A DNA stretch of 63,063 nucleotides, filler included, from Basidiobolus ranarum (Eukaryota): assembly GCA_040143965.1 (NCBI GenBank). It is 17 parts of 17 records of this genome, joined end to end, with 100 filler letters (N's around TTAATTAATTAA, not from the genome) between each part and the next. Parts side by side here need not be neighbours in the genome. Positions count along the whole stretch, not along the records: positions 14,895 to 18,515 come from JASJQH010002376.1; 16 more parts are not named here. One strand, 5' to 3'. This document shows, piece by piece, positions 3,626 to 59,495 of this stretch. Numbering within the stretch: the first letter of the stretch is position 1; each line of letters opens with the position of its first letter. The notes beneath the pieces were generated by a model, which saw only the letters and a program-made list of their open reading frames with translations, made no database searches and was not told the origin of the DNA. Made by a program: the position numbers and the translations under genes.

Positions 3626-3725
3626 NNNNNNNNNNNNNNNNNNNNNNNNNNNNNNNNNNNNNNNNNNNNTTAATTAATTAANNNNNNNNNNNNNNNNNNN
3701 NNNNNNNNNNNNNNNNNNNNNNNNN
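3626..3725. other. Artificial contig linker N44-TTAATTAATTAA-N44 (first of 16)
   Basis: Identical 100-bp linker starts at 3626, 7350, 11073, 14795, 18516, 22236, 25953, 29670, 33386, 37101, 40814, 44527, 48238, 51947, 55655 and 59360. Intervening segments never increase in length (3625 to 3604 bp). The 12-mer puts stops in all six frames. Confidence 0.99.
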
Positions 3726-3797: not shown

Positions 3798-5967
3798 TCA
3801 CTTGTCAAGCTTTTGGAGCGCATTTGAACAAGGGCCGAGGTCTATCCAAACATCTTCACCATTATTGCCAGGGATATTATTTTGACTCCACCACTTGGCC
3901 TGCCAAAGGTGTTCATTATAGACTACCTTCTGAGGACCAGTATAGACGGTAGAAGAATTCCAAGCGGATATACCAGTACATGTTGTATATGAAGGTACAT
4001 TAGGGGTGACTGATGTAGTTGTTGGGGGTGAAGTGGGTAGTGATGAAGCGATGGGGTTGATACTGGAAACTGACGATGATTCAGTGGGAGTGCTTGGTGT
4101 CGAGGAGAGAATGGCTGTACTTGGGATAGTTGTAGCAATGTCACCTGAACATCCACTGATGGCATTCCAATAACCTGAACCAGCAGCTGGTGCTTGCCCT
4201 TGTACCCACCATAAAGATTTCCAGATATATCCCTCATATGCAACAGTGGAGCCACCAGGGTATGATCCAGATGCATCCCAAGCTGGTACAGAGTTACAAG
4301 AGGGAAGTTTCGGTTCGACATTACAGCCACCGTTATTCTTTAGAAACTTGATGTCGGCAAATAAAAATATAATTAAAATCAAAGGTTTTCATAAAATTCC
4401 TTGCAATTTTGTTACCTGCTTGGTTCCTTGTCCGTAGTTCATACCTCCAACTTGATTATTCCACGCTTGAGAAACATCCCAAAACATTATACCACCAAAA
4501 CTACTGAAGTTTCCTCGTGTTTCTTCAGCAATGATTTGCAATTGTGAAAGTGGAACGTAACTACCAAATGCCAATAAGATTAGATAACTGCTTGAAATTA
4601 TGGTTAATGTACACATACCCTGAACCAGCAGCACTGGGTGCAGCAGGAGCACCAATAAAAACTTTGACTTGTGGATTTGGAGAGATGTGAGTGGCCCAAT
4701 AGTCCCAAACACCGTAATTCCAAGCTTGATAGTTATCATAGTATTGCAAGCCGCCTAGTAAAGAAACAGTTTAGCCAGTCAGTTAGCATAGTAGCTAATC
4801 ACCAAATATGCACATACAAGGGTTGTTGTAGAACTGGACAAAGACGAGGTCAAACCATGCATTGTTCAACGTGCTGCTGAGTTGGCCATCTAAGGAACAT
4901 AACATTCAATCATTAATTATTGTTGGTGTATCTATAGAGCTAGTTAATATGTATATCCTACCGGGATAAACACATTGGGGTGCACCAGTAATCAAGTACT
5001 TCTTACTTTTATCTTGAGCATAGTAAGAGCGAAGTTGATTGATAAATGCAACGTATCCGGTGGGACCACCTCCCTCAATATCTAGATCGACACCATCTAG
5101 GACGGTATCACCGAATGGCCTTGTATCTGATTTACCACCAAGGAATAAATTCCTAAAAATATTTTACGTTATTTACCAAGATTATACAACAGACCAAGAA
5201 GTCCAAACAAACCATATTTGCGTAGCAAATTCCTGGGCTTGAGTATCATTCTGGAATCCGTAAGAACCGCCGGCACCGCCAAGTGACAGAATAATGGATT
5301 TTCCTCGAGACTGACAGAATTTGATATCATTACTCACAATAGGACAGTTGAGTAAACCGGTGCTAGGAAAGGTGGCATTATCTTTCAGATTGCATGTCTA
5401 TCAATGAGATTTGTGAGACTACAAGCATATCCATAAAATATTTGAATACGAGTAACTGACATTGGCTAAATTTAGAGCCGGGAGTCCACCTTGTCCAAAG
5501 AATGTGTTCAAAAAGGCTGCAAATTCAGAAGTTAGTGTGGGGCGTAGCTGAAAATACACTCAATGGTTGTTACCCAGTGGGATCACATCCAAAGTATCAT
5601 CTTGACAATAGTATGCGAGATCTCGTTGCCAGCCAGTGGAATTACCCCCGCCACCTCCGTAGCTATTCTGACCCCTGTGAAAAAGTTAGACTCCCCAAAA
5701 TTCAAAAGCGACGGAGCTACAAATTACCAATCTAGAAAGACAGCGAGTTTAGAAAGAGAAAAGTAAAGAATTGCTTGATATCAATAAATACTAACATGCT
5801 ACGAGATTGTCATTGCAGTTAGGCTATGTTGGGCATGGTCAGACAGGTTAGTATTCATCCTTACTTATTCAGATCCTTCACTCTTTACTTACATCGAAGG
5901 CTGTAGAGAATGTGACGTTTATGGAGGTTACCACGAATGCCAATAGTATTTTGATAGCGAACATCAT
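3798..5967 (-). CDS. Secreted GH18 class III (CTS1-like) chitinase with two C-terminal CBM5/12 (ChtBD3) modules and a Ser/Thr/Pro linker; about 11 exons
   Basis: Spliced translation gives signal peptide [14 protein letters not shown]…, YWGQNS, SLGGA, catalytic [27 protein letters not shown], then two AW…Y…V.Y….W…WW modules. Confidence 0.95.
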
Positions 5968-6708: not shown

Positions 6709-7449
6709 TTAAAAGGCCACAATAGGATACTTTTCTCTTTTGTATAGTCTAGGATTTTGGATTATTATTTGTAATTGTTCGAATTACCTTAGTAGCGTCA
6801 ACTTGAATTGTAATATTGGATCGAATCAGCTTGGGTGTGAGGTAACGCTTGTTGGATTGAATGAGTTTTCACCACCATGCTGCTCAGCATATATTGATGC
6901 AGTGTACTCTCCCTCAACTTCAGGTCCCTGATACCTGCTAGCCTGGAAGATGTTCATATTGTTATGTCTAAGAGTATTAGGAGTGAGTACTTATCTCAGT
7001 TTTGGGACACTAGCTACTAGTTCTACTCTTGGTTGAATCTCTGGTTCACAAGGATATCTTTGTTGAGTACAAGGTATACCCCCTTGATTTCGACTTAATT
7101 TGCTGAGTATCTTAGCTATCGTGTTGCAACATGTCTTTCCAAGTCTAGATCTTGCAAAGAGTGCCACACCAAGTGCACACCGATTTTAGGATATCCCCAG
7201 GCTTCCAAGATGCTAATAAATCGATTTTCTTCTATGTCAAGTACTACTGCTATGCGTTGACTCTCTATATCTTGACAGATGGCCATACAATGTTCAAGCA
7301 TGGCTAGGCCCATTTTCAAAGATTTGGATATATTAAAGCTTGCTCTTCGNNNNNNNNNNNNNNNNNNNNNNNNNNNNNNNNNNNNNNNNNNNNTTAATTA
7401 ATTAANNNNNNNNNNNNNNNNNNNNNNNNNNNNNNNNNNNNNNNNNNNN

Positions 7450-7778
7450 CAGCGATCTCTGATACGAACAACAACAGATCCCTTAGGCCCTTGTACCTTG
7501 ACACACTTTCCACACATTGACGCCTGATCAGTGTCTTGGCCAGAACCTTGGCCGAATTGGAAGCGACTAAGAGCTGCAATCATATCGCTCTCGCTGGAGC
7601 TATCCCCTTGCTTCGAGCAAGCATCCTGATCAGGAGTGAAGAAGGTACCATCCCCACTGTAGTCGCGCTTGCTCATGAGAGCTTTGTCATGGACACCAGC
7701 ATAACCTGCGAACTGAGCACCAAGCACAGCTTGGACCGAGAAAAGGCAAAGAGAAAGAGTGGTGATTGATTTGAACAT
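7450..7778 (-). CDS. Secreted RlpA-like double-psi beta-barrel (expansin/loosenin-like) protein, 3' truncated
   Basis: Signal peptide, KR site, SGDGTFF…AC, MIAALS, MCGKCVKVQGPKGSVVVRIRDR. Confidence 0.9.
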
Positions 7779-14894: not shown

Positions 14895-15100
14895 ACTGCT
14901 TTTATAGCGAACCCAACTGTGTTGGAGAGCGCGTATGTATGATCCCATATGGCCCTGGATCTGAATATAATACTATCATCCCTGCTACCGAAAATATGAT
15001 TAAGAACGGACTTCGCAGTAGTGTGGCGCTTCCCATGAAGCCAGCAAATGGCTACAAGGCTCCGTTTACCATGAATCCTTTCGAGAATATTGACTACTAG
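14895..15100 (+). CDS. 3' end of a secreted Cys-containing protein (upstream tandem copy)
   Basis: CFYSEPNCVGERVCMIPYGPGSEYNTIIPATENMIKNG…ENIDY*; the first 76 nt are identical to 18436-18511. Confidence 0.8.
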
Positions 15101-15829
15101 ATGACATGCTGACTGTATTACATCACTTGCAACAATGATGAGAACGTGTTATTTCCAAAACCATATTAATTACTCAATAAATATAGACTGCTACACCCAC
15201 GTTGTATCTTTCGCTGGTTTGAGTGCTCTCTAAGCTCCATATGATCAGTCTTGCAGAATAGTGACTTTCATATAGCAATTCGAAACTAGTAATCTCAATG
15301 AAAATTCAGGGTATAGAACTTTATCGTGGTTTTGTTTGCCTGTAAAGAGCACATCAACCAGGTGAGTTTTACCAGTGCTTTTAATACATCGAAATAAGCA
15401 GTAAAAAAACAAGTTCATTGACATCAAGTATCAATCAAGTGCAAAACCATCGAGATACCACAATATCAGTTAGGGTTAGCTAAGTGAAATCCGCATTAAG
15501 TAATTGGTAACTGTTTCCGTCTCCATTACTACCGTTGCGATCTGTCTCATTTCCATCGTTGTGGTTTTGTCATATGTTTGGTCTTTATGTGAGTATATAT
15601 CCATCCTTCTTTAGGAATCTGTGAGACGCACCAAATCAACGATTCCTGCGAGATTAGGGCTAGATCGATCGGTTGCAATCTCGGTAAGGCAGAGGGCCAG
15701 GACCAGGAGTCATTTCCTTTTTCAATTGTACTCTTTCAGAAGTAGCAGCTAATTATTCAAGTGTGTATATTTATAAAGTATTCCATTTAAGGGATATTGA
15801 GACCATCTTCAAATGAACTGTAATGTATG

Positions 15830-16350
15830 TGAGATAGAACAGACAACCCATGCTCCTTGTCCTCATCCTGGAATTACTTGTGAATGTCACCAATATCTAT
15901 TAATCTGTCTATGTCTACTAAGAACCAATAGTCGTGATATTCTATATTATCCAAATATTAGGAATACAAGATTGTAGATTTCGATATTCTACTCCCCAAA
16001 TATATACTCTAGACCATATAGATTTTGGATTTACCCGTATTCTAGAATTGAAACATTATCTCCCTAAGGCATCTTAACCTATCCCGATTATTCCATCTAT
16101 TCTGAGAACGGACTATCTTGAGAATATGTATAAGAGAATGTTTAATAGATCTAAAAATGATGATATCCTCAAAGAAGTCAAAAGAATGCTTGCCACAAAA
16201 AGTGGAATGTATCATAATTTAGTTGAAGGTTATAAGGTCAATCACTTTGTTAGATCAGTTATCGTACCTGCTCCTTACCTTAAACCTGACACTATAGACC
16301 TACCTTTAGGCTGTGACATAGGTACCAGCTATAGAAATCTCGAACTTCAG
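15830..16350 (+). pseudogene. Decayed compact multisubunit RNA polymerase (beta'-like) fragment, resembling linear cytoplasmic plasmid (VLE) RNAP
   Basis: In-frame from 16081: IPIIPSILR…LATKSGMYHNLVEGYKVNHFVRSVIVPAPYLKPDTIDLP, which lines up with beta' motifs LPVxPP.R and GK.GR.R.NL.GKRVD.S.RSVI.P.P.L. Intronless; breaks off before NRQP/NADFDGD. Confidence 0.7.
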
Positions 16351-17972
16351 TGTTTAATATCCATCGTATTCCCAACACACATTGCAAGCCAGTACCAGCT
16401 ATTACTTCCTTTATAGATGTGAGACCTTCAACCAAACCAGCGCACCAGGGACAGATATCCAAAGTAGGAAACGTTTGAAAATATCTCCTTCAACGTTATA
16501 TGCAAATTTTCCTCTAAAGAACTACCTGCAGTAGAACTTTGCCCTAGAAATATCCATCAGAAGTGGATGTCCGCTTCAGTAAGAGTAGTATAAATCATTT
16601 CTCACAAATTGGAATGTGTTGATAGTTTCATTGTTTTACCTAAACCCTGAACCCTTGTACCTATACACTAATAACACCATCTATGCTAGGAGGAATATTG
16701 AAAATTGTTAAATAACCACCCAAGCATGTACATCAACTTAACCTCTAGCTCTCATTTCACAAATATCGCATTTCCTAACCCATATTTTCTCGAAGGCTTC
16801 ACTTAGAATATTTTTACTCAAATGTCAGGCACTATGATCATAATGTTTGTCAAAGTAGGTCCTAAACACTCAAACCTAGCACACAAGTTCCTGGGACCTT
16901 CCTACATATATTTTGCTAAAAGTGTAAACACAATTTATAGATTGGAACACTACCACAAAGCATATACTAATCTACTGGTTTCCTTAGCCGCAAGTCTATG
17001 GACTACACCATTGCATTAGGTAAATCGATCTCACTGCTTGTTAGTAAATGGTACGTTGGTTTTATTCTTGATCATGATATTTTACTTAATAGGTTAATCA
17101 TATTCCAAGCACATTTCATTAAAAGCTTGTTGACAAGCGGAAATATATTCTCCTATTTTAGCAACAGGAGCTAAATAGATATAGGCCATGGACAAGACGC
17201 AAGATACATTGGTACTAGAGCGTAATAAGGAGAATGTATTTCAAAGAAAAGCAGCATCGGAAGGATAGAACAAGTCATGGACATCAGTTGTCAGTTCATA
17301 TATGTTTCACTTTCTGTCCCTTTTGGAAAATCTACGAAGTTTGTGTAGTACCCCATTCCACCCTATGGTTGCTTCTATTTACAGAAGAGCATTGCGGCTG
17401 CGGGTACGGGTGCATTTTTTCCGGCTTTGTAGATTTAGCCAGTACAAAAGAATTTTCGCTTCACAAATATGGTTTCCGTGGTTGAGTGCGTGGGCGGGAG
17501 GGTCCTAGAATATTACATTAGCAAACAACTGCTAGTATTGCTAAATTGAGTGAGGTGATAGAATATTCCATTTCCGGGAATAATTCCGCATGCTCCTTGG
17601 AGTCATTAAGATTTTGTTGCTAGTTCAATTACATGGTTAGAAGGCAGCTGAATTACTCTACTTGTCCTCTACAGCCGCTAAGACTTGACCAGTGTATCCA
17701 TAGTGCCAAAAGGAGGTTGCTTGGTTAGAAGGAAGCAGAAAGATGACAAATGCTTGGCTAGAAAGAGGTGAACAGATAACGAAGACTTGGCCAGTGTTTG
17801 GGCTGTTCCAGAATTAGGTGAAAAGACAAGGGCAGAATCTTCCACTGCGATAAGGCATAAACAGCATCAATCAGACAAGCCTTACATGGAGGTCAACAAG
17901 TGCTGGAAGCTCATCTATATAAAATAGATGGTTTACGCATTCCTGTGGATTATTCTAACCCATAAGATTAAG

Positions 17973-18515
17973 ATGCAACTTCGCTTGACCGACCTAGCTG
18001 TTTGGACCGTGCTTGCTACTTCTACCTTAGCTAAGCCCATTGGGATTACTCTTGACCTCTCAGGTAAGATCCCTCCCCTTACTTCCACTCCCATTGAGCA
18101 AAAGTATCCTGTTGATGCTCCTTGCAACAACTCCACTGAGGCACAAAATCTCTATGGTGGCTTTCCTGTTTGTAATCCCGCATGGTTCTCAGGAGTGGTG
18201 GCATCAGAGCTGGATGCCGAGTTTTTGATCTGGACTAGCCCTTCAAATCAAAAAGCCATTGAAGATAACGATGTAAACGAAACCGTCGCCGCAACTGGTA
18301 CAGTTTCTTTAGCTAGTGATGCTAGCGGCATCAGTGGCTACCCTATCATGTATCCAGAGTTTAATCAGTGTGCCAATATTGACCCTGTTGAGAACAATGG
18401 CGGCTTTGCCCTTAACTGGCCTACTGAGGCTATCTACTGCTTTTATAGCGAACCCAACTGTGTTGGAGAGCGCGTATGTATGATCCCATATGGCCCTGGA
18501 TCTGAATATAACACA
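17973..18515 (+). CDS. Secreted protein of unknown function, 3' truncated (downstream tandem copy)
   Basis: TATA-like sequence near 17916, signal peptide MQLRLTDLAVWTVLATSTLA, open intronless frame, C-terminal C-F-Y-x4-C-x-G motif. Confidence 0.8.
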
Positions 18516-46744: not shown

Positions 46745-48237
46745 TACAATCTCAGAGAACTATGGATCAATGCATGTGCAAAAAACATAATGCAAATTTT
46801 ACATGTTTATCACTTTAAGATTAATTTGTCACCTTTAAAATCCCTATTTTCTTTGATATATTCTCCTGAATAATTTTATAGAGTTCTTCATACCCAAGAT
46901 TTAGCTCATATCCAACATGAGTTTGTATCAATATCTCCATTAAAGCCCACCATTGTATTCATGTTGCTGAATCAACATTCTTCCAGCTATCTGGTGGATA
47001 CTCTGCAATATTGTGCCACTATGTATTAAATTTTTCCTGGATATCTGCATGGTCAACACCAGACTGAATGTCAAGTTGAATGTTCTTCTCTGAAGTCACT
47101 TTCCATATACTTGCACTGCATTTTTCACATCATTCTTTTGAAAATACATCTCAGGCACTTTTATTAGTTTTATACATCCTGGTAGTGTGATACTATTGAG
47201 GATGCTTTGCAGTGTTTGTGTGGCTTTTTGCTTGCCTTGGAGTTTGGGGCTAATTTCAGCACTTTGAAAAGTACCAGTTGAGGTTGGAGAGCCATGAGAT
47301 TTATTTGCTGGTGTTTTGGCTTGTTGAGAGCTGCCTGGTGTTGGATAAACTTGCAAACTTAACACTCTTCTGACTGGTGAACCTGGTTCCATGGCAAAAT
47401 TGAACCTTCTTGCCAGTATATCTGCCCTGATAGAAATTTGAGGATTGCTATTGTAGGAAAACCGTCACAATTTTAATCCATTTGGGATTGACTGTTTACT
47501 TACCATCATAAAATTGTCAAGTTAGACTTGATTTTAATCTATTTTTTCAGTTTTAGGAGTGAAATTTCAAGATCTCGCAAAATAGTTGTGCATCATTGGC
47601 TAAAATCTCAGAGAACTATGGATCAACACATGTGCAAAAAACATAACTCAAATTTTACACAATTACCACTTGAATGCTAATTTGTCACCTTTGAAATCCC
47701 TAGTCTCTTTGATATATTCTTCTGAATAATTTTATAGAGTTCTTCATACCCAAGGTTTAGCTCATACCCAACACAAGTTTGTGTCAATATCTCCATCAAA
47801 GCCCACCATTGTATTAACGTTGCTGAATCAACATTCTTCCAGCTATCTGGCGGATACCCTGCAATATTGTGCCACTCTGTATTAAGTTCTTCCCAGATAT
47901 CTGCATGGTCAACACCAGACTGAATGTCAAGTTGAATATTCTTCTTCTGAAGCCATTTTCTGCATACTTGCACTGCGTTTTTCCCTTGATACTTTTGAAA
48001 AACTCCTCAAGCACTTTGACTATTTTGGTACATCCTTGTAGTATGATACTACTGAGGGTGCTTTGTGGTGTTTGTGTGGCTTTTTGCTTGCCTTTATCTT
48101 TGGGACTAATTTCAACACTTTGAAAAGTACCAGTTGAGGTTGGAGAGCCATGAGTTTTATTTGCTGGTGTTTTGGCTTGTTGAGAGGTGCCAGGTGTTGG
48201 ATAAACTTCCGAATTTAGCACTCTTCCAACTGGTGTA
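46745..48237 (-). repeat. Two tandem decayed copies (period about 856 bp) of the unknown ORF family also seen at 760-1396
   Basis: AATCTCAGAGAACTATGGATCAA at 46748 and 47604; GSPTSTGTFQS.EISPK recurs in ORFs 47096, 47814 and 867. Confidence 0.9.
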
Positions 48238-48337
48238 NNNNNNNNNNNNNNNNNNNNNNNNNNNNNNNNNNNNNNNNNNNNTTAATTAATTAANNNNNNN
48301 NNNNNNNNNNNNNNNNNNNNNNNNNNNNNNNNNNNNN

Positions 48338-51851: not shown

Positions 51852-51924
51852 TGGTCTGGCCAGGAATTGAACCTGGGACCTCCTTCACTCTAGCAAGGTG
51901 CTCTAACCACTGAGCTACCAGTCC
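51852..51924 (-). tRNA. tRNA-like sequence (pseudo-tRNA, AGA at the anticodon position, no long variable arm)
   Basis: GGACTGG-TAGCTCAGTGGTTAGAGC-A-CCTTG-CTAGAGT-GAAGG-AGGTC-CCAGGTTCAATTCCTGG-CCAGACC-A: cloverleaf with A and B boxes and single mismatches in the acceptor and anticodon stems. Confidence 0.75.
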
Positions 51925-56805: not shown

Positions 56806-57521
56806 TTATTGGGATTTAACTTTAGCAGAGTAGGATACCATCAGATTCTTGTAGTCAGGAATGTACTTGGCAAAGAGCGAGCCAAGACTACCATCAGCAA
56901 AATTTCTCCAATCGCGGGCCAATTCACACACAGGTGAGAAAAGTTCATTGGTTGAACGCCAGCCTGGACCATTCGAGCTAAAGTAAGATCACGAACCTCT
57001 TGATTGAATGTTCCAGAGGCGTCAAACACTTCGTAACCCTCTTGCACCGCTGAAAGAGCTGGGAATGCTACACAAACATCCGTACCAATTCCTGCCATCA
57101 CTATTTGCTTTCTACTGGTTTCTTTGATGGCTTGAACCACTTCGGCATTATCCCAAGCATTAATTTCTTCTTTACGAGGGACATAAGTAGCATTTTTTTG
57201 AAGACTCTTGGCTTCAGGTAGTAGTAGCCCATTGGGTCCATCTTCGACACTAGAGGTAAGTACAACTGGAATGTCTAGTAATGCCGAAGCCTCAGCTAAT
57301 CCCAGAGCATTAGCCTTGAATTCATCTGATTGCCAGTCGTCAACGAGAGAAAAGAGACCAGCCTGGAGATCAAGAAGTAAAAATACTGTATCGTTGACAT
57401 TCAAACGCTTGTAGAGATCCTTGTTGGCTCCATCTTTTGATACAGACGATCCGAATTTCAGAGGAGAAGCTGCGGCGGAGAAGGCTAGAAGTGCTACTTG
57501 GAATACAGTTAAGAATTTCAT
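56806..57521 (-). pseudogene. ycaC: YcaC-like isochorismatase-family hydrolase with signal peptide; one frameshift
   Basis: YKRL…LLLDLQAGL, LTSSVEDGPNG, PR..EINAWDN, TDVCVAFPALSA, DASGTF. The conserved tail CELARDWRN…IPDYKNLMVSY lies in another frame after the T4 run at 56939-56942. Confidence 0.88.
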
Positions 57522-58495: not shown

Positions 58496-59495
58496 TAACA
58501 CAGCTTTTTTATTGAAGTGACTATTTGTGCACATCTGATACATTCAGTAGCTTAACCTGACTGTGCAGTAAAGTTACTCCAACTTTTCTTCAAGTATCTT
58601 ACTTTCCTAGTGATATAAATATTTCCAATGGAGTTCTATTTTGCCATTTTGTCATCAAGAACCCCATTTAAAATAGTTCCAATAATTGCCGATTGAGCGC
58701 TCTATAATTTGTGGAAACTAATCTACTACAAACATTATGCATGATGAAGATACTTACAAGTGATAAAATGCGTTCTTTGATTAGTATAAGATCGAGTTAA
58801 TATAAAGATTATAGCAGTTGAAGCTGGATAATTAGAGTTCGAACATAATTACAAGGCCTCCATCAAAATTTATACCTCTATGCTACCGAGGTGTGACTTT
58901 TTCTCTCTTTATCCACTCTCTATTGGTAAAGAAGGCAAAGTGGGACTACGATTATAAGGGCAATGATAATTGCATATCGGCGTATGGTTGAACCTATTAA
59001 CCTGCTTCCTTCGTAACAAGTCTCAACAACCCATTGTTCACGTGCATATAGGCTTATTTGGCAGTCACCGAAAGAAGTCTAAGAGTTTACTCAGTTGTTG
59101 TAATAGTGATTTGAAGTAGCACAAATCTGATCGTATCGATAACACATATGACACAACTTGTTTGTTGTAACGATGTCTTGAATCTTGTACAAGAAAAGAT
59201 CATGAGTTCACGGTATTCATACTAGACTAGCTTTGTTGATTAATACTCACAACATATTCGGTTTGAACGGGTATACTTATTAGAGGAATCAGCGAACAAG
59301 ACTACTACTATAAGACTGATCAGGGATACTTCATGATACACTATGATACTTAAAATAACNNNNNNNNNNNNNNNNNNNNNNNNNNNNNNNNNNNNNNNNN
59401 NNNTTAATTAATTAANNNNNNNNNNNNNNNNNNNNNNNNNNNNNNNNNNNNNNNNNNNNATATGATTACTAATGAGAATTTCTGGAAAGTTCCAG

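Follow-up and report, generated by a model that had tools for sequence, protein, structure and literature searches.

A short stretch in the genome of the fungus Basidiobolus ranarum is a dead piece of a linear-plasmid RNA polymerase gene. In our preferred reading, to which we assign a probability of roughly 0.7, part of the polymerase gene of a VLE was captured into chromosomal DNA, a placement that we infer, and then decayed there. The gene concerned is the one known as pGKL2 ORF6, K2ORF6 or YKP6, a housekeeping gene of the helper plasmid whose product joins a beta-like (Rpb2-like) half to a cut-down beta'-like (Rpb1-like) half. To our knowledge, killer-plasmid-like elements were known before 2025-26 from budding yeasts only, and the host in the present case is Basidiobolus (Zoopagomycota), which is a zoopagomycete rather than a yeast.

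All positions given here refer to the window, that is, the whole 63,063-base stretch of DNA that was analysed. It consists of small unplaced contigs joined in a chain, 17 pieces ordered by decreasing length from 3625 down to 3604 bp and parted by 16 linkers, each of the form N44-TTAATTAATTAA-N44 (for example 3626-3725, 7350-7449 and 59360-59459). As the pieces are separate contigs, those that adjoin in the window need not adjoin in the genome, and only the fifth piece provides the true context of the polymerase fragment. The GC content of piece 5 (0.395) is typical among the 17 pieces, and the correlation of its trinucleotide composition with that of the rest (0.970) lies inside the range of 0.943-0.983 spanned by all pieces. 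The fragment itself has a GC content of 0.34-0.36, which equals that of the local non-coding DNA, and the DNA on either side of it is non-plasmid, with a host-like composition. Neither a tRNA scan nor a tandem-repeat scan of piece 5 returned anything, and Pfam searches with 16 ORFs of this piece other than the fragment frames gave two rows at chance level alone (E values of 0.15 and 0.043).

That the trinucleotide make-up and GC content of piece 5 fall within the limits set by the other 16 pieces argues against its having come from another organism in the sample, such as a yeast or other fungus with VLE relics. So does the finding that both of the pieces tested (two of the 17, neither of them piece 5) are Basidiobolus. 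We regard this origin as unlikely, even with the observations that it could call upon. Piece 5 has no repeat in common with the other 16 pieces and is without any of the repeat families that other pieces share, no ORF of piece 5 could be linked to a Basidiobolus protein, and the assignment of VLEs to hosts is reported to have been misled earlier by mixed-species samples (PMC13348850).

The other pieces hold several genes and repeats of their own. The sole tRNA gene in the window is a tRNA-Ser (AGA) gene in piece 14 (51852-51924, minus strand). Piece 16 carries a complete ORF (56844-57521, minus strand) for an isochorismatase/YcaC-type hydrolase with a putative signal peptide, by reading, at its N-terminus. 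The best named matches of this protein are from Basidiobolus meristosporus (70% identity) and B. ranarum (65-89%), followed by YcaC-type hydrolases of bacteria (cyanobacteria and proteobacteria, 52-60%), and on the strength of these matches it looks like a member of a Basidiobolus gene family with a bacterial origin. Piece 3 contains a partial ORF (7452-7778, minus strand) for an RlpA-like double-psi beta-barrel secreted protein, which belongs to a conserved multi-copy family; its 90%-identity cluster includes four B. meristosporus proteins, encoded on one 74-kb contig, and two B. ranarum proteins. In piece 2, an ORF at 3798-4388 (minus strand) has two Trp-rich repeats, putative chitin-binding modules of bacterial type by reading only, with a Ser/Thr/Pro-rich linker between them. 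Pieces 1 and 13 match each other at 86-90% over approximately 450 bp and have an ORF in common (e.g. 867-1466 and 47814-48281), between pieces 12 and 14 the similarity extends over approximately 3 kb at 72-81%, and a repeat of 120-350 bp occurs in seven pieces (6, 8, 9, 10, 11, 13 and 17).

An initial annotation of this DNA, made from the sequence alone, had drawn attention to polymerase-like peptides at 15830-16350. The peptides are present as quoted and the coordinates proved right, with the homologous stretch running on the plus strand from 15816 to 16350 (at most 15801-16365) and comprising approximately 550 bases, or some 180 codons, over three frames. The series (P)IPIIPSILR, 28 residues and then TKSGMYHNLVEGYKVNHFVRSVIVPAPYLKPDTIDLP lies in one stop-to-stop frame of 112 residues (16078-16416, plus strand), and the Cys/His-rich piece that had also been quoted lies upstream in a different frame, at 15801-15977. 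The three parts into which the fragment is divided by its frameshifts are given in Table 1, together with the other features of piece 5. They were aligned with P0024, a full-length relative, by tblastn and with a profile of the polymerase family (38 proteins, 1006 positions) that was scored on all 3340 six-frame ORFs of the window.

Table 1. Piece 5, its polymerase fragment and the features at its ends, in positions of the window.
Feature	Position	Strand	Remarks
Piece 5 of 17	14895..18515	.	3621 bp contig carrying the polymerase fragment
Left copy of 79-nt direct repeat	14895..14973	+	99% identical to 18436-18514; spacing 3541 bp
Fragment part 1 (first frame): Cys/His-rich, zinc-ribbon-like end of the beta/Rpb2-like half	15816..15956	+	tblastn P0024 684-731, 58% identity; profile 664-706, E 1.1e-5
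Fragment part 2 (second frame, after frameshift): short linker with in-frame TAG	15944..15988	+	tblastn P0024 741-755, 10/15 identical; profile 717-740, E 4.6
Fragment part 3 (third frame, after second frameshift): start of the beta'-like half	15988..16350	+	tblastn P0024 757-877, 64% identity; profile 743-832, E 3.9e-33
Neighbouring gene, apart from the fossil: front of ORF with signal-peptide-like start	17970..18515	+	In-frame continuation 14897-15097 if the ends are joined
Right copy of 79-nt direct repeat	18436..18514	+	Single difference AAT vs AAC, both Asn

Part 1 overlaps the segment that Pfam assigns to Rpb2_7 in P0024 (650-700) and in P0002 (693-775), and the YH..VEG....RSVI stretch of part 3 corresponds to positions 1-34 of the Pfam Rpb1_2 profile, as it does in P0008. 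Part 2 is not significant alone; it is colinear with the parts on either side of it. Taken together, the three parts run colinearly across the junction at which the beta half is fused to the beta' half (P0024 residues 684-877, profile positions 664-832 of 1006) and represent approximately 17-18% of the gene. The proposal that the peptides match conserved blocks of beta'/Rpb1 therefore needs to be divided. It stands for the frame with IPIIPSILR and fails for the Cys/His-rich piece, which is the beta/Rpb2-like end and falls inside the Rpb2_7 match of the relatives.

Within its approximately 180 codons the fragment has suffered two frameshifts and two in-frame stops, and both of its ends are cut off. 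One of the stops is a TAA at 16075-16077 in part 3, which ends just short of the NRQPSL block. Decay is also visible at individual residues, as the invariant His of the EGH block has been replaced by Tyr, the Cys that follows NH has become Phe, and nothing can be recognised of the invariant NRQP block. Introns or an alternative genetic code were considered as explanations for the breaks and were rejected, the frame changes abutting free of gaps and the stops being different codons (TAG and TAA). Outside the fragment, the rest of the gene was found nowhere in the window by tblastn with 18 relatives or with the profile on the six-frame ORFs, where every other score had an E value above 4. The catalytic blocks GDK..RHGQKG and GGLRFGxMERD of the beta half and NADFDGDE of the beta' half occur in no frame of the window by motif scan, tblastn or profile. 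Since the upstream beta part and the downstream NADFDGD block are missing, the fragment cannot make a polymerase. It is non-functional, and it has no function today.

Direct comparison with domain and structure collections says little of the family to which the fragment belongs. Pfam searches with its three frames found no family (at E<=10 for the 112-residue frame). The same frame matched 49 chains of the PDB at non-significant E values of 0.09-1.9, nearly all of them beta', Rpb1 or RPA1 chains, and the matches always cover the same block, around residues 319-370 of E. coli beta'. The segment IPIIPSILR...YKRMFNR aligns with the DLNDLYRRVINRN block of bacterial beta' only in a negative-scoring HMMER segment. 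As judged from these alignments, the likeness of the fragment to cellular enzymes is weak, if real in kind. In the absence of a Pfam family and with PDB matches below significance, the assignment rests on intermediate relatives.

Such relatives were readily recovered. A phmmer search with the 112-residue frame against 1.84 billion representative sequences returned 18 proteins with E<=1e-3, of which the top match had an E value of 6e-35 and 69% identity. Twelve of these (P0001-P0004 and P0006-P0013, E values of 6e-35 to 4e-5) form one polymerase family, and two more, P0015 (8e-5) and P0017 (3e-4), resemble on reading the large subunits of cellular Pol I. The remaining matches, P0005, P0014, P0016 and P0018, are repeat proteins that match in 4-13 stretches and were set aside as spurious. 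When all 18 proteins were compared with the window by tblastn, alignments were found between 15819 and 16365 only, with an E value of 1e-43 for P0001. P0024, which is not one of the 18, aligned by tblastn at 2e-57. The closest full-length relatives were recovered by a word-indexed search and are P0024 (1047 aa, 68%), P0025 (1013 aa, 66%) and P0026 (1015 aa, 59%).

The relatives are single chains of 920-1124 residues in which Pfam recognises Rpb2_3, Rpb2_6, Rpb2_7 and then Rpb1_2. Rpb2_6 and Rpb1_2 occur within one chain in all nine proteins of one Pfam scan and in seven of the eight of another, the exception being P0013, a C-terminal fragment of 300 residues with Rpb1_2 only. The identity of this family was obtained from a search with P0012, which found 326 proteins at E<=1e-5. 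Among the best 120 of the 326, which are those considered here, the first 26 (E<=1e-198, 935-1124 aa) constitute the family, and two of them, P0002 and P0007, are also matches of the fragment. Its named members are the 'RNA polymerase' proteins of Saccharomycopsis crataegensis and S. selenospora and the proteins Q04387 of Lachancea kluyveri, Q2P9T0 of Millerozyma acaciae and Q9HFH5 of Pichia etchellsii. Cluster look-ups also brought in Ambrosiozyma monospora (P0008), as well as two halves of an S. crataegensis gene on a 14,065-bp contig. With the 27th match the E value falls to 1e-20, and this protein is an Rpb2 of cellular type with the full cellular Rpb2 domain set. The nearest relatives of the fragment likewise reside on contigs of plasmid size, of 14,382 and 15,271 bp in the P0025 cluster and of 16,746 bp in the P0026 cluster.

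These results support the compact fused polymerase of VLE type that the initial annotation had proposed, in that the relatives are single-chain beta-beta' proteins whose family includes the named polymerases of yeast linear plasmids. The tighter spacing of the conserved blocks that it had noted relative to cellular enzymes was also found, with 19 residues between block starts as opposed to 61 in B. subtilis beta', a comparison that is qualitative because the alignment is weak. The fragment thus derives from a fused beta-beta' polymerase of the pGKL2 ORF6 / K2ORF6 / YKP6 type, its membership running through five other named yeast plasmid polymerases; no protein bearing the name of K. lactis pGKL2 ORF6 was among the matches.

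Several observations would fit a giant virus (Nucleocytoviricota), a phage or a cellular Rpb1/beta' gene as the source in place of a linear plasmid. The polymerases of VLEs are themselves thought to be viral (poxvirus-like) in origin (PMC6211774), fungal genomes are reported to contain pseudogenes from giant viruses (PMC13348850), and the weak structural matches include beta' and RPA1 chains at E values of 0.14-1.9. The organization of the fragment nevertheless makes such a source highly improbable. An Rpb2-type end and an Rpb1-type start are joined in one colinear stretch, and because the fragment spans the fusion junction, no gene from a cell, a giant virus or a phage could have been its source. 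A separate Rpb1 is found in none of the 12 family matches, and the sole matches of cellular type, P0015 and P0017, have E values of 8e-5 and 3e-4 against 6e-35 for the best. The outcome that had been named in advance as refuting a plasmid origin, best matches to ordinary Pol I, II or III or to giant-virus subunits, was not what we observed, and a gap in E value from 1e-198 to 1e-20 separates the family from cellular Rpb2.

Searches of viral and environmental sequences agree with this conclusion. The frame found nothing at E<=1 by tblastn in 50,697 phage records, in which P0024 had partial matches only, at no more than 28% identity. Patterns from the family alignment A1 recovered 80 loci when viral contigs were scanned. 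Many of these carry the label GVMAG, and the giant-virus loci match the Rpb2 part only, at 24-37% identity; the same contigs scanned with P0025 gave nothing. When metagenome contigs were scanned with alignment A1, no plasmid contig was found, and the 80 loci obtained, at 25-32% identity and mostly on large contigs, are read from their identity, matched range and contig sizes, rather than by inspection, as cellular RNA polymerase operons. By phmmer, the P0012 search, the PDB matches and the phage tblastn, the fragment is nearer to the named plasmid polymerase family than to cellular, giant-virus or phage subunits.

The position of the fragment within the family was examined with a tree of 39 rows and 180 columns, composed of the fragment (with X at the breaks) and 38 family proteins and leaving out six non-family matches and redundant cluster members. 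The tree falls into two halves of 25 and 14 rows, each with support of 99/99. All six named Saccharomycotina sequences are in the 25-row half, and the fragment is in the 14-row half, where it forms a clade of four rows (97/97) with P0024, P0001 and P0047, inside a clade of six rows (100/99) that also includes P0025 and P0026. Its terminal branch measures 0.61, compared with 0.21 for its sister P0024. Over the fragment, identity is 62% to P0024, 57% to P0001 and 51-52% to P0025, P0026 and P0047. The named yeast proteins reach 30-39% over the same stretch. A phylogeny had been suggested as a check on the initial annotation, and this tree of family members places the fragment in a clade apart from the six named yeast sequences. 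The lack of named yeasts in this clade is a further argument against the derivation of piece 5 from another organism in the sample.

The ends of piece 5 bear on its physical form. They are copies of a 79-nt direct repeat, so that a tandem unit or a circle is possible, and a frame of 237 codons crosses the ends when these are joined. The ORF concerned, which looks like that of a secreted protein, matched no Pfam family, its best score in a protein atlas (0.88) is below the meaningful level, and AlphaFold run without an alignment returned an unusable model with a mean pLDDT of 30. Exact look-up of three versions of the ORF in a protein collection gave no match. The simplest reading is that a secreted-protein gene is present in two tandem copies and that the polymerase relic occupies the spacer between them; possibly, piece 5 is instead a small circle of 3541 bp.

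If the second arrangement applied, piece 5 might not be nuclear at all and could represent a decaying or rearranged extrachromosomal element that is still in the fungus, for instance a multi-copy molecule derived from a VLE, a small circle or a tandem amplicon. The direct repeat of the contig ends, with its 3541-bp period, is compatible with this view, and there are reported parallels in free VLEs, since the VLE contigs of Coemansia also hold pseudogenes (9 of 45 DNA polymerase genes in one isolate) and small secreted-protein genes are found on VLE contigs elsewhere (PMC13348850). The content of piece 5 makes this an improbable account, however. It carries no more than 17% of the polymerase gene, inverted repeats number zero pairs, and no plasmid DNA polymerase or further plasmid gene was detected in the piece by Pfam on 19 ORFs or by the family profile. 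The secreted-protein ORF has a host-like GC content of 0.47 (other coding ORFs of the window have 0.41-0.445), and the one synonymous base by which the end copies differ fits two tandem copies of a gene better than a circle.

We return to capture as the preferred origin of the relic. By analogy with the yeast NUPAVs, the fragment is most likely a captured piece of plasmid, and on the same analogy the 3.6-kb unplaced contig would be located in the nucleus. A piece of plasmid DNA would have entered chromosomal DNA by capture, probably through end-joining at a break, the route proposed for the yeast NUPAVs, and would then have undergone neutral decay while flanked by two copies of a host gene for a secreted protein. 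The relic would now be inert and would record that the lineage of Basidiobolus had carried, or encountered, a VLE of helper type. Its level of decay and its host-like base composition suggest that the event was old, or that the donor was less AT-rich than the yeast plasmids. If the locus also occurs in sister species, it would provide a minimum age for the association of the plasmid with Basidiobolus.

Among the known systems that the fragment resembles is the polymerase of the yeast VLEs (K2ORF6p/YKP6), which is described as a unique beta-beta' fusion without most of the clamp (PMC6211774). The fusion order Rpb2_3, Rpb2_6, Rpb2_7, Rpb1_2 is common to both, the fragment being colinear with it over profile positions 664-832, and in both the YH..VEGHR.NH..RSVI block follows the zinc-ribbon-like end of the beta half at a short distance. 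The fragment differs in being a broken piece of 180 codons that shares 30-39% identity with the named yeast proteins and falls in the other half of the tree (99/99), and it is not on a linear plasmid. Unlike a free VLE, piece 5 ends in direct repeats, has no terminal inverted repeats, and contains no family B DNA polymerase or further YKP genes that we could find.

Yeast nuclei are reported to capture genes from VLEs, and the resulting sequences are termed NUPAVs (PMC4431711). The fragment resembles them as a degenerate piece of a VLE gene among host-like DNA that is without plasmid context, with a presumed history of capture followed by decay. It differs in that the Basidiobolus host is not a yeast, in that the chromosomal nature of its flanks is something we infer, and in base composition. 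Yeast VLEs and young NUPAVs are described as extremely AT-rich, with over 75% A/T (PMC4431711), which the fragment, with a GC content of 0.34-0.36, does not reach. Nuclear clusters of killer-toxin genes derived from VLEs have been described from Pezizomycotina and a few Agaricomycotina (Heneghan et al. 2025, as cited in PMC13348850). They too represent plasmid-derived DNA in filamentous fungi that have no known free plasmid; the fragment differs from them as the relic of a housekeeping gene, and no gene of a toxin cluster was recognised with it.

The initial annotation had described the VLEs as a group known mainly from yeasts. A restriction to yeasts no longer applies, as free elements were reported in 2026 from Zoopagomycota (Coemansia) and Mucoromycota (Cunninghamella, Umbelopsis and Podila), with a possible further case in the chytrid Kappamyces (Heneghan, Salzberg and Wolfe 2026, PMC13348850). 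According to that account, all non-Dikarya assemblies were searched, several of the non-Dikarya VLEs carry YKP6, and VLEs are proposed to have originated in the ancestor of terrestrial fungi. The name Basidiobolus occurs zero times in its main text, a scope that leaves aside supplementary Table S2 (DNA polymerase hits per Zoopagomycota assembly). Literature searches returned nothing for Basidiobolus with linear plasmids and, as judged from titles and the starts of abstracts, nothing relevant for Basidiobolus with VLEs. As far as these searches show, the fragment is the first trace of a VLE in Basidiobolus.

With the non-Dikarya VLEs (PMC13348850) the link is one of host, Coemansia belonging with Basidiobolus in the phylum Zoopagomycota. 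These elements carry YKP6, and the plasmid-sized contigs of the nearest relatives of the fragment fit the reported helper elements of 14-16 kb. Such contigs are in public data, and the fragment points to them as sequences whose hosts merit identification. We would give even odds to a wider proposal in three parts: that Basidiobolus, apart from the Kickxellaceae with free VLEs, carried or in some isolates still carries a linear plasmid of helper type that belongs to the non-yeast clade; that the fragment is the first captured relic of a VLE housekeeping gene described outside Dikarya; and that the 14-17 kb contigs encoding P0024-P0026 are living relatives of the donor. The VLEs reported from other non-Dikarya fungi are free, high in copy number and mostly intact, whereas the fragment is short, dead and surrounded by host-like DNA. 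The relic would add an independent lineage of Zoopagomycota through evidence of a different kind, in the form of a genomic fossil instead of a free plasmid, and it represents a housekeeping gene rather than toxin cargo.
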